The position numbers were made by a program. DNA of 64,000 nt from Escherichia coli. Lineage in GTDB: Bacteria; Pseudomonadota; Gammaproteobacteria; Enterobacterales; Enterobacteriaceae. Of the stretch, positions 1 to 3,000 are shown piece by piece. The DNA is taken from NCBI RefSeq assembly GCF_045037415.1, contig NZ_CP173438.1; one strand, 5' to 3'. Within the stretch, counting starts at the first letter, position 1; each line of letters begins with the position of its first letter.

Positions 1-3000
1 GGCCCGATTATTCAGACCTTTTTCTCCCATGAGATTTTATGCCAGCGTTACCTGCTGGACGGCGTGATTGCGCTGGTGGATGCGGTACATGCCGATGAGC
101 AGATGAACCAGTTCACCATCGCCCAGTCACAAGTGGGCTACGCCGACCGTATTCTGCTGACTAAAACCGACGTCGCAGGCGAAGCAGAAAAACTGCGTGA
201 ACGCCTGGCGCGCATCAACGCCCGTGCACCGGTCTACACCGTCACCCACGGCGACATCGACCTGGGCCTGCTGTTCAACACCAACGGTTTTATGCTGGAA
301 GAGAACGTCATCAGCACCAAACCGCGTTTCCACTTTATCGCGGATAAACAAAACGATATTTCGTCGATTGTGGTGGAACTGGATTACCCGGTAGATATCA
401 GCGAAGTTTCCCGGGTGATGGAAAACCTGCTGCTGGAATCGGCGGATAAACTGCTGCGTTACAAAGGGATGCTGTGGATTGACGGCGAACCTAACCGCCT
501 GCTGTTCCAGGGCGTCCAGCGCCTCTACAGCGCCGACTGGGACCGCCCGTGGGGCGATGAAAAACCGCATAGCACGATGGTGTTTATCGGGATTCAGTTG
601 CCGGAGGAAGAGATTCGGGCGGCGTTTGCGGGGTTGAGGAAGTAATTATGGATGATGGCCGCCATGTGGCGGCCTGAATTATTTTTTGTTCTGATCGCGC
701 AGCATCGCTTCACGTAAAATTGCGTTCAGGCGAGTTTGATAGCCTTTACCAGGTCGCTTCAGCCATTCCATCACATCAGCATCAATACGCACCGAAGCCT
801 GGGTTTTCAATGGCCGATAAAACTTACCGCGTTCTGCGTTAGACCATTGCTCATCGCTGGAAGGCGGGATATCACTGTAATCAATATCTTCGTCGAATTT
901 ATTCGCCAGTGCCTTCAGTTCGGCCTCATGCTGCACATCGAGTGTAGAGGGTGTCCCTCGTTTATGTTTAACCATGCTCATAGCGGCTCCTCTCTTTACG
1001 ATCTGCTTTTCGTGCACTGATGATTCGAATAATTTCATTTCCGCTTTCGAAACGGATGGTATGCGCAACCAGAATAACCACGATACCGTGAACCAGGCCG
1101 ATAGTCTGCCAGCGATACTCACCGTTTTCTATGCGATCTTGCTGTGACAAATGTTGTGGATCATCAAACACTAACACCGCATCTTCAAAGCGGATGCCAT
1201 GTTTCACCCGATTACTTTTGGCCTTGTTTGCATCCCATTCAAACTCCATTGGCATAGTTGCCATCCCTAATTGTATATACAAAAATGTATCTACAATTAT
1301 TCTGCAATTATAGCGTTGATGTTGGAAATAGCATCACGTTTTGGATAATCAACCATGAAATTGACAATGAGTAAGTTGGACTTGATTCATCCAATAGAAT
1401 TTCTCGCCTGACATGGCACACTAAACACCTCGCTGTCGTTAAGGGATTACCGTGAAAAACTATAAAGTTATTACCCCGCTTTTTCCTACCTATGCACAGG
1501 TTAAAGCTATGATGAAAGCCGTCTCAGGCTATTCCCTGAAAGCGGTACGCAATATGATTACCGCCATTCGCGATCAAACCGGTACGCCGCAAAAACCCGT
1601 TGACTGGTCGGAACCTGACCTGTGGATCAGCGAACGCTTAACGGGCGAAGATGCCGACATCGCCCGTCGTATTTGGGATACAGATAATCACATATTGAAC
1701 CCGCGCCACAGCTACGGCTGCTACTTATTCCTCAACTATCCCCAGTTTGAGCTGATGGAAAGCACGCCAGATGATACCTGGCAGCCCACCTCGCGCGGGC
1801 AAAAATTCCTGCAAGATGACGAAAAAACGCTGCGTTCACTGGATGACCAGGAAGGCATTCTGCAACTGCTTGAGCTGCTGGCTGGCCGAGAAATGTCGCG
1901 CCGCGCCGATTTATTGCCGGAATGGCAGGCCTTTTTGCATCAGCATTCGAAATTCGCGTCTGCAAGTTCAGTGAAAAGCACGCTCTACTCCCGTCTCTAT
2001 AACCTTATTGACCGTGGCATGGTTACTCGCGAAGGTATGAGCTATTGCATCACCGATACCGGACGCGCCTGGCTTGGAAAAGCGTTGCCAGCACGAAAAA
2101 GCGATCCGCGTAAAGAGCTGCTGGAAGCGGTGAAACGCTACAACGAGCAGCAAAAAGAGCTGCTGCGCGAACAAATCAGCACAATGAACCCGTACAAATT
2201 TGAACAACTGGTCGGTCAATTACTGGAAGCAATGGGCTACGAGCAGGTCGAAGTGACCAAAGCCTCAGGCGATAAAGGTGTGGACGTGATTGGTCAGGTG
2301 CAGGTCGGCATCACCACTATTACCGAAGTGGTGCAGGTCAAAAGAATGCAGAACACCATCACTCGACCGTATATCGACCAGTTGCGCGGAGCGTTGCCTT
2401 ACCACAAGGCCATTCGCGGTACGCTCATCACCACCGGGAAATTTGCAGCGAAATGTGCAGAAGCGGCGCTCTTTCCGGGGGCCGCGCCCATTACGCTTAT
2501 CGACGGCGATCGCTTACTGGAACTGTTAATCGAAAATAACGTCGGCATTCGCCGCAGCAATGCAGTGGAATTGCTGGATGTGGATTTGCAGTTGTTTGAT
2601 GAGCTGGAGATGGATTAAAGGGCGAAATCCGCCGCCTCAACCATTACAATAGCGACCCAATTTATCTGAACAGAGTTCATCATGGCCAAAGCACCAACTA
2701 AAAAAGCCAAAGCAAAAAAAGGCTTTGAAGAAACATTATGGGATACCGCAAACCAACTTCGCGGTAGCGTTGAGTCCTCCGAATACAAGCACGTGGTGTT
2801 AAGCCTCGTGTTCCTGAAATTCATCAGCGATAAGTTTGAAGCACGCCGCAAAAAAATGATTGCCGATGGGCAAGCTGACTTCCTTGAGATGGAAGTGTTC
2901 TACCAGCAGGACAACATTTTCTACCTGCCGGAAGAGGCGCGCTGGTCGTTTATCAAACAAAATGCCAAACAGGACGATATTGCGGTTCGTATTGACACCG

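Follow-up and report, generated by a model that had tools for sequence, protein, structure and literature searches.

BrnT and BrnA are the toxin and antitoxin of a type II toxin-antitoxin family for which a 2:2 complex, autorepression and a toxin-first operon have been reported (PMC5086665, PMC10714953, PMC11980606), the order T/A being the one listed for BrnT (PMC11980606). For the Brucella abortus toxin, the residues Asp6, Glu7, Lys9, Arg41 and Glu78 are important for RNase activity (PMC5086665, summarising Heaton et al. 2012), and a study of an Acidovorax homolog adds a Lys-His pair and a C-terminal Glu (PMC10714953). The C-terminal domain of BrnA has been assigned to the ribbon-helix-helix (RHH) type (PMC2701414, PMC11980606). 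Closer to the subject of this study is PDB entry 7VD7, released in 2022 and titled 'Toxin-Antitoxin complex from Salmonella enterica serovar Typhimurium' in the Foldseek description. The proteins translated from STM4528 and STM4529 of S. Typhimurium each differ by one residue from the 7VD7 chains, and therefore a close ortholog of the genes considered here has been crystallised as a complex. Here we compare these systems with a brnT-brnA pair found next to yjiA in a stretch of Escherichia coli DNA (RefSeq assembly GCF_045037415.1, contig NZ_CP173438.1), whose whole length of 64,000 nucleotides we call the window; on its other side the pair faces a restriction cluster made up of an Mrr-like gene and hsdMSR. 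We conclude, with a probability of roughly 0.87, that the pair is a canonical chromosomal type II BrnT/BrnA operon that represses itself, is an old resident beside yjiA and is independent of the restriction cluster. The following features define the pair:

968-1255, minus strand: brnT, the toxin gene (ATG at 1255-1253, TAA at 970-968, 95 amino acids)
679-981, minus strand: brnA, the antitoxin gene (ATG at 981-979, TAA at 681-679, 100 amino acids)
968-994, minus strand: translational-coupling junction, read from the sequence, with the start signals of brnA within the 3' end of brnT

The toxin gene comes first and the two genes share the 14 nt from 968 to 981. The Shine-Dalgarno sequence of brnA, GAGAGGAG, lies at 994-987 within the 3' end of brnT, and its GGAG (990-987) stands 5 nt upstream of the brnA ATG. 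The first-pass annotation of this DNA had proposed two overlapping minus-strand open reading frames (ORFs) with the size, order and 14-nt overlap typical of brnTA and with a strong ribosome-binding site for the antitoxin ORF. Direct reading confirms both ORFs, whose ends coincide with the RefSeq coding-sequence boundaries in strain Nissle 1917; the overlap lies within the range of 8-38 nt seen in homologous pairs, and the spacing of the GGAG makes the description of the ribosome-binding site a fair one. Over the 861 bp that surround the pair, many RefSeq E. coli genomes, among them Nissle 1917, are 100% identical to the window, and RefSeq names the identical genes 'BrnT family toxin' (WP_001295743.1) and 'BrnA antitoxin family protein' (WP_000063148.1). 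The search with hidden Markov models that had been suggested for the pair identifies both genes (BrnT_toxin, PF04365; BrnA_antitoxin, PF14384), and these Pfam matches uphold the assignment to a BrnT/BrnA-type type II toxin-antitoxin operon. Because the matches cover both family models in full, the genes are not chance ORFs. Antisense ORFs within the pair (for example 736-1020 on the plus strand, 94 amino acids) were treated as mechanical.

The toxin matches PF04365 (formerly DUF497/COG2929) with E = 7.1e-25 over model positions 1-77 of 77, and PHROG 4399, 'ribonuclease toxin', with E = 5.7e-23. In comparisons with PDB its residues 2-95 match chain A of 7VD7, the S. Typhimurium toxin (E = 5.3e-53), and its residues 3-90 match chain A of 3U97, the B. 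abortus BrnT (E = 4.5e-4). By analogy with these homologs, BrnT is predicted to be a RelE-like (BECR-fold) ribonuclease of the BrnT family. In an alignment of eight toxins (those of the window, of the second E. coli allele, of Salmonella and Brucella, and of four plasmids), W7, D8, K11, N15, K18, H19, G20, R48 and E88 are invariant. These include the equivalents of four of the five Brucella RNase residues (D8, K11, R48 and E88) as well as the K18/H19 pair.

The antitoxin matches PF14384 (COG3514/COG5304) through residues 37-93, over model positions 1-68 of 68 (E = 3.1e-17), and PHROG 30665 (E = 8e-27). Its residues 14-57 align with the entire chain B of 7VD7, the antitoxin co-crystallised with the toxin (E = 9e-16). 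Because the crystallised portion of the antitoxin is the N-terminal half, the neutralising segment can be located there, and by analogy the N-terminal part of BrnA (about residues 14-57) would be the part that binds the toxin. The two halves of the protein differ in conservation: residues 64-94 carry the motif VRIDAD..WLK..GKGYQTR.N.ILR.AML, which stays invariant as far out as the Acinetobacter plasmids, whereas the N-terminal half varies. The C-terminal part (about residues 58-98) is predicted to form an RHH DNA-binding domain. An AlphaFold model made from a 7-sequence alignment, with a mean predicted local distance difference test (pLDDT) score of 65, has helices at 68-74 and 81-98 following an extended segment, and this low-confidence model is compatible with a strand-helix-helix arrangement.

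The region between brnT and the divergent Mrr-like gene is 196 bp long. It holds two features that would control the operon, and a third lies at the other end of the pair:

1268-1299, no strand assigned: putative BrnA operator, 13-44 nt upstream of the brnT ATG
1290-1312, minus strand: probable brnTA promoter core, with a perfect -10 hexamer, TATAAT, at 1312-1307
657-674, no strand assigned: GC-rich hairpin with 7 G-C pairs, between the stop codons of the converging genes yjiA and brnA

The operator region contains a perfect 12-bp palindrome, TTGTATATACAA, at 1271-1282 and a copy with two mismatches at 1285-1296, 14 bp apart, which together form inverted-repeat arms of 14 nt each (1268-1281 and 1286-1299, 93% complementary). 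At up to two mismatches these are the only two copies of TTGTATATACAA in the window, a count that is not above chance, so that the weight falls on their adjacency and position. Two tandem 11-nt direct repeats (1290-1300 and 1301-1311) overlap the TATAAT, which is kept in E. coli, Salmonella and Citrobacter. An alternative -10, TACAAT at 1275-1270, was ruled out since it leaves no space for a ribosome-binding site. A regulatory block of about 75 bp is near-identical in Salmonella, and the DNA further upstream cannot be aligned. An exact-pattern scan with one genome per species placed the operator block also in E. albertii and in two Citrobacter species; both Citrobacter loci align to the block, and E. 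albertii was identified by pattern match. On plasmids, TGTATATACA stands 10-20 nt upstream of brnT in Klebsiella aerogenes and Xenorhabdus, has one mismatch in the Salmonella diarizonae plasmid and is degenerate in Acinetobacter, so that a palindrome of the operator type precedes brnT in three of the four plasmid brnTA loci examined. Read as sequence patterns, the conserved palindromes and the invariant C-terminus of BrnA are good indirect evidence for a putative BrnA operator. A match of the 26-nt operator pattern to a Lachnospiraceae metagenome-assembled genome (comparison locus L017, about 980-1210) was set aside: it falls in an AT-rich repeat next to an unrelated 327-residue ORF, with no brnTA, and probably represents iteron-like repeats or chance.

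The hairpin at 657-674 folds with -16.5 kcal/mol (z = -3.4), and a terminator-like site is called there on the plus strand. Because the T-run is present on the plus strand only, the hairpin is well suited to terminate transcription of yjiA and could do so for brnTA no more than weakly. Immediately past the stop codon of yjiA, K-12 and Salmonella have a repetitive extragenic palindromic (REP)-like element, GCCGGATAAGGCG...CATCCGGC (comparison loci L002 12865-12909 and L003 7926-7999), and the window has at 646-678 a different GC hairpin, GGCCGCCATGTGGCGGCC, in its place.

It had been suggested that the pair has no counterpart at the equivalent position in K-12, and it is indeed missing there, the coding sequences of yjiA and mrr in MG1655 being 45 bp apart. 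The view that the pair had been inserted is not supported, because the order yjiA-brnA-brnT recurs in four other species belonging to three genera. Beyond brnT these loci continue as follows:

Salmonella (STM4529/STM4528): mrr and hsdRMS
E. albertii: the same Mrr-like gene and hsdMS as in the window
Citrobacter sp. On2M: hsdMS
C. gillenii: yjiR, an Rpn gene and mdtM, without restriction genes

Within E. coli, the window and a representative of the second allele are 97.2% identical in brnT, 97.0% in brnA and 97.0% in yjiA. The pair has thus diverged as much as yjiA, which together with the synteny makes it a long-standing resident of this flank and not a strain-specific insertion; on sequence identity, the equal divergence points to co-inheritance of the pair with this flank. 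We conclude that brnTA is an old resident beside yjiA in Escherichia, Salmonella and Citrobacter, which K-12-type strains do not carry, and that its inheritance at the yjiA locus appears to be vertical. The GC content of the pair is 45-47% (44-47% at third codon positions, GC3) versus 55.5% for yjiA (GC3 70%), and between E. coli and Salmonella its synonymous divergence is saturated, with yjiA at about 0.6. There is room for an ancient horizontal origin, or for repeated replacement at the hotspot; a single old acquisition with later losses explains the data more simply.

To describe the distribution of the pair in E. coli we surveyed 5426 complete genomes, in which intactness was judged by BLAST coverage and not by reading frame. 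A brnA-specific segment is present in 2111 of them (39%), almost always on the chromosome and once per genome, except for one copy split by IS1. Its identity to the window falls into two bands, at least 99% in about 490 genomes and 95-99% in about 1620. Matches to E. coli 'plasmids' of 655-834 kb look chromosome-scale or misassigned and were not used as evidence of mobility. Among the 2002 genomes that keep the 5' end of brnT, 880 have the junction to the Mrr-like gene seen in the window, and 1113 (56%) share one identical brnT-IS1 junction. In the latter, IS1 lies about 200 bp upstream of brnT, at the start of the Mrr-like gene (near window position 1438; comparison locus L006 8776-9473, and likewise L007, L013 and L014). 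In all four genomes with this junction that we examined, IS1 replaces the entire restriction cluster through to mdtM. The pair thus survives loss of the restriction cluster and has no functional tie to it, because it persists both beside the IS1 replacement and in C. gillenii, where restriction genes are absent.

Both genes have been maintained as proteins: between E. coli and Salmonella the ratio of nonsynonymous (dN) to synonymous (dS) change is about 0.06 for brnA, and for brnT dN is 0.085-0.09 with dS saturated, the toxin being 86% identical in amino acids versus 77.5% in nucleotides. The losses that do occur fall on the toxin. The antitoxin gene is at least 80% covered in 2110 genomes and the 5' part of brnT is complete in only 1780, and 331 E. 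coli genomes and one Citrobacter have kept brnA with brnT deleted. In 222 of the E. coli genomes a 158-bp deletion internal to brnT leaves the promoter and the brnA ribosome-binding site in place, and in 109 a deletion of about 290 bp takes away the -10 and the operator along with roughly 75 codons from the start of brnT. A third, independent deletion in Citrobacter sp. On2M has cut brnT to an in-frame mini-ORF of 23 codons, MPIEFEWDANKAQSNLRNHYEHG (comparison locus L018 9779-9860), with the promoter, the operator and the coupled brnA all intact. Because the genomes are not phylogenetically independent samples, these deletions are few events rather than hundreds of independent losses, and each E. 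coli deletion class may go back to a single one. The reverse state, brnT without brnA, was found in no genome, as queries with the whole pair and with brnA only both match 2111 of the 5426. The only disruption of brnA is in strain PEC41, in which IS1A has entered after codon 68 and brnT is intact (comparison locus L007 4126-5205); the remaining codons 1-68 encode the toxin-binding half, and the DNA-binding half is lost. This one-sided decay is the pattern expected if BrnT were toxic and the N-terminus of BrnA neutralised it, and the natural variants that have lost the toxin and retained the antitoxin offer indirect in-vivo evidence for an active toxin.

We propose that the operon works as follows. 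Transcription of the minus strand from the promoter at about 1312-1290 would give a toxin-first bicistronic mRNA, from which brnA would be translated by coupling to brnT. The N-terminal half of BrnA would wrap around and neutralise BrnT, and its C-terminal RHH domain would bind the pair of TTGTATATACAA-type palindromes that lies between the -10 and the start of brnT, with BrnA probably in a BrnT2:BrnA2 complex, so that the operon represses itself. Proteolysis of the antitoxin would release the toxin, and upon depletion of BrnA free BrnT would cleave RNA and arrest translation and growth. We infer the RNase activity, toxicity, neutralisation, stoichiometry, autoregulation and proteolytic release of the toxin from the Brucella and Salmonella homologs. 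The pattern as a whole fits best with a self-maintaining element that may have a role in the response to stress or phage.

Several observations weigh against this account. At the toxin, the equivalent of the Brucella Glu7 is not conserved: Salmonella and the window allele have Ala9 there, the other common E. coli allele has Glu, and the plasmid homologs carry Ser or Thr; variability at this position does not exclude BrnT from the family. No RHH structure was matched by BrnA, for which Foldseek against PDB returned only 7VD7_B, and a profile search of PDB returned 7VD7_B together with chance matches to troponin and TnsC. A consensus promoter scan upstream of brnT found no minus-strand promoter at threshold, the -35 being weak (the best candidate in a hand search at 16-18 nt spacing has 3 of 6 matches). 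A scan of BrnT and BrnA against NCBIfam matched neither protein, which is uninformative given that Pfam covers the family. The searchable literature yielded no experiment on the E. coli BrnTA pair, and searches for 7VD7, STM4528/STM4529, Salmonella BrnTA, or BrnT with the immigration control region found no study of the locus. To these points we add the coverage-based definition of intactness and the dependence among genomes described above.

The genes beyond the pair are of some interest in themselves. The divergent neighbour (1452-2618, plus strand) encodes a protein of 388 amino acids, distinct from the Mrr of K-12, with a C-terminal Mrr_cat nuclease domain (E = 4e-29). The full-length protein matches PDC-S02, a candidate system in PADLOC (E = 8e-207), and in genome S1-KEN-04-A the gene is a pseudogene with an internal stop. 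The type I restriction-modification genes that follow (2682-8953, plus strand) are in the order hsdM-hsdS-hsdR, as against hsdR-hsdM-hsdS in K-12 EcoKI. Their hsdS is AT-rich (38% GC, GC3 31%, versus 51.5% GC for hsdM), and HsdS proteins vary between otherwise similar loci. Past the hsd cluster lies a second toxin-antitoxin system, with symE at 9168-9506 on the plus strand, annotated in Nissle, and the SymR antisense RNA (Rfam RF01809, 83 bits) at 9097-9173 on the minus strand, opposite the 5' end of symE. In strain C4 the DNA beside a brnA remnant carries a Fic family protein, a GmrSD-type restriction endonuclease and another type I system (comparison locus L004 6442-9319), a cargo that illustrates the variability of this hotspot. 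Far from the pair, positions 51269-51355 on the plus strand match the catalytic domain of a group II intron (Rfam RF00029, 65 bits); an O25b:H4-ST131 chromosome that shows 100% identity to the distal part of the window annotates an ltrA reverse transcriptase/maturase in the same stretch. By this identity the window derives from a B2 / ST131-like strain.

Among the other explanations for the pair, the one that survives best, while still unlikely, is that it is a phage-defence (abortive-infection) module acting with or alongside the restriction cluster, in which infection would free BrnT and halt translation before the phage completes its cycle. The pair does lie at the edge of a variable defence hotspot, near an Mrr-like nuclease and a type I restriction-modification system, some type IV restriction systems are reported to have BrnT-like toxins as neighbours (PMC11090510), other toxin-antitoxin pairs of the RelE superfamily defend against phage (PMC11980606), and homologs occur within phage protein families (PHROGs 4399, 4692 and 30665). 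However, neither protein matches any PADLOC model (PADLOC-DB v2 gave no family for BrnT and none for BrnA at E up to 0.01), our literature search found no report of BrnTA-mediated phage defence, the pair persists without the restriction cluster in the four IS1-junction genomes and in C. gillenii, and at least three lineages have deleted the toxin. A paper on E. coli defence islands does not mention yjiA or mrr.

It is more doubtful that the Ala9 allele encodes a weakened or inactive toxin and that the pair is a decaying remnant kept only for regulation by BrnA. The difference at position 9 between the window allele (Ala) and the other E. coli allele (Glu), and the frequent deletions, which suggest that the toxin is dispensable, are compatible with this idea. 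Yet position 9 takes the states A, E, S and T among evident members of the family, the Salmonella ortholog that was crystallised as a toxin-antitoxin complex also has Ala, the comparison of E. coli with Salmonella shows strong purifying selection on brnT, and brnA is never lost where brnT is kept.

We hold equally tentatively that brnTA, rather than being neutral baggage, might be a conserved 'anchor' of the boundary of the enterobacterial immigration control region on the yjiA side. Since symER stands on the far side of the hsd cluster, the cassette of the Mrr-like gene and hsdMSR is bracketed by brnTA and symER, and the restriction cassette between them would be the swappable part. All that speaks for such a role is position and conservation. 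Were it true, loss of the antitoxin would penalise recombination or deletion that crosses the boundary, or the pair would serve as a back-up growth arrest when restriction fails.

There is still less reason to see the pair as an addiction module that stabilises the neighbouring restriction island against deletion. Members of the family occur on plasmids of 5-9 kb in Klebsiella, Xenorhabdus, Salmonella and Acinetobacter, the last supplying 118 of 139 plasmid matches, and post-segregational killing is the usual role there; moreover, in the four IS1 haplotypes examined, the deletion comes to within about 200 bp of brnT without touching the operon. But in those same haplotypes the island has been deleted anyway, by way of a junction found in 1113 genomes, a toxin-antitoxin pair can select only against deletions that remove the pair itself, and K-12-type strains have the island without brnTA. 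Weakest of all, and in our view very improbable, is the view, built on the first-pass annotation, that the pair entered the immigration control region of this strain only recently, as mobile cargo: its low GC and GC3 relative to yjiA suggest that it was once acquired from elsewhere, plasmids and phages carry mobile members of the family (PMC2701414) and the synonymous divergence of the pair from Salmonella exceeds that of yjiA, but the position and orientation are identical in four other species of three genera, the divergence inside E. coli equals that of yjiA, a single copy occupies a single locus in 2111 genomes, and the window holds no flanking repeats, integrase or transposase beside the pair.

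An old, self-repressing brnTA operon that is independent of the restriction cluster remains our preferred reading. The main use of the analysis is thus a correction, in that the pair is a long-standing neighbour of yjiA, apparently passed on vertically, that persists through swap or deletion of the restriction cluster. For the study of BrnTA it adds a candidate operator, TTGTATATACAA in two copies, and a set of natural toxin-deleted variants.

Set beside known systems, the pair is an ordinary, already known and annotated BrnT/BrnA system with a solved ortholog structure. The Salmonella ortholog occupies the same chromosomal position (yjiA-antitoxin-toxin), with about 86% protein identity for the toxin and about 83% for the antitoxin, and shares the toxin-first overlap, the operator palindromes, the -10 and the Ala at toxin position 9. 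The Salmonella locus differs in being flanked by mrr and K-12-like hsdRMS, whereas the window has the Mrr-like gene and hsdMSR, and nucleotide identity is 77.5-78%, with synonymous sites saturated.

The B. abortus BrnT/BrnA system (3U97; Heaton et al. 2012, J Biol Chem 287:12098) has the same Pfam families and the toxin-first operon, the D, K, R, E and K-H residues are conserved, and the mechanism to be expected from it is an RNase toxin, a 2:2 complex and autorepression by BrnA or BrnTA (via PMC5086665 and PMC10714953). In contrast, identity to the Brucella toxin is about 33%, Glu7 there corresponds to Ala9 here, and in the E. coli toxin additional residues separate the first conserved block from the second.

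The plasmid brnTA systems (K. aerogenes p35_E, Xenorhabdus XD_p, S. diarizonae p28NP3 and A. haemolyticus pAhaemAN59b) share 59-74% identity in the toxin and 49-64% in the antitoxin, the invariant C-terminal DNA-binding motif of BrnA, TGTATATACA-type palindromes before brnT and the toxin-first overlapping layout (14 nt of overlap in K. aerogenes, 8-38 nt in the others). They differ in that they reside on small plasmids, for which a stabilising role is usually expected, whereas the copy in the window is a single chromosomal locus. Finally, BrnT differs from the K-12 RelE/ParE toxins in its separate Pfam family, in the toxin-first gene order and in the C-terminal position of the DNA-binding domain of its antitoxin, but it belongs with RelE, YoeB, YafQ and HigB of K-12 to the RelE/ParE (BECR-fold) superfamily, with RNA cleavage and arrest of translation as the expected activity (PMC11980606).

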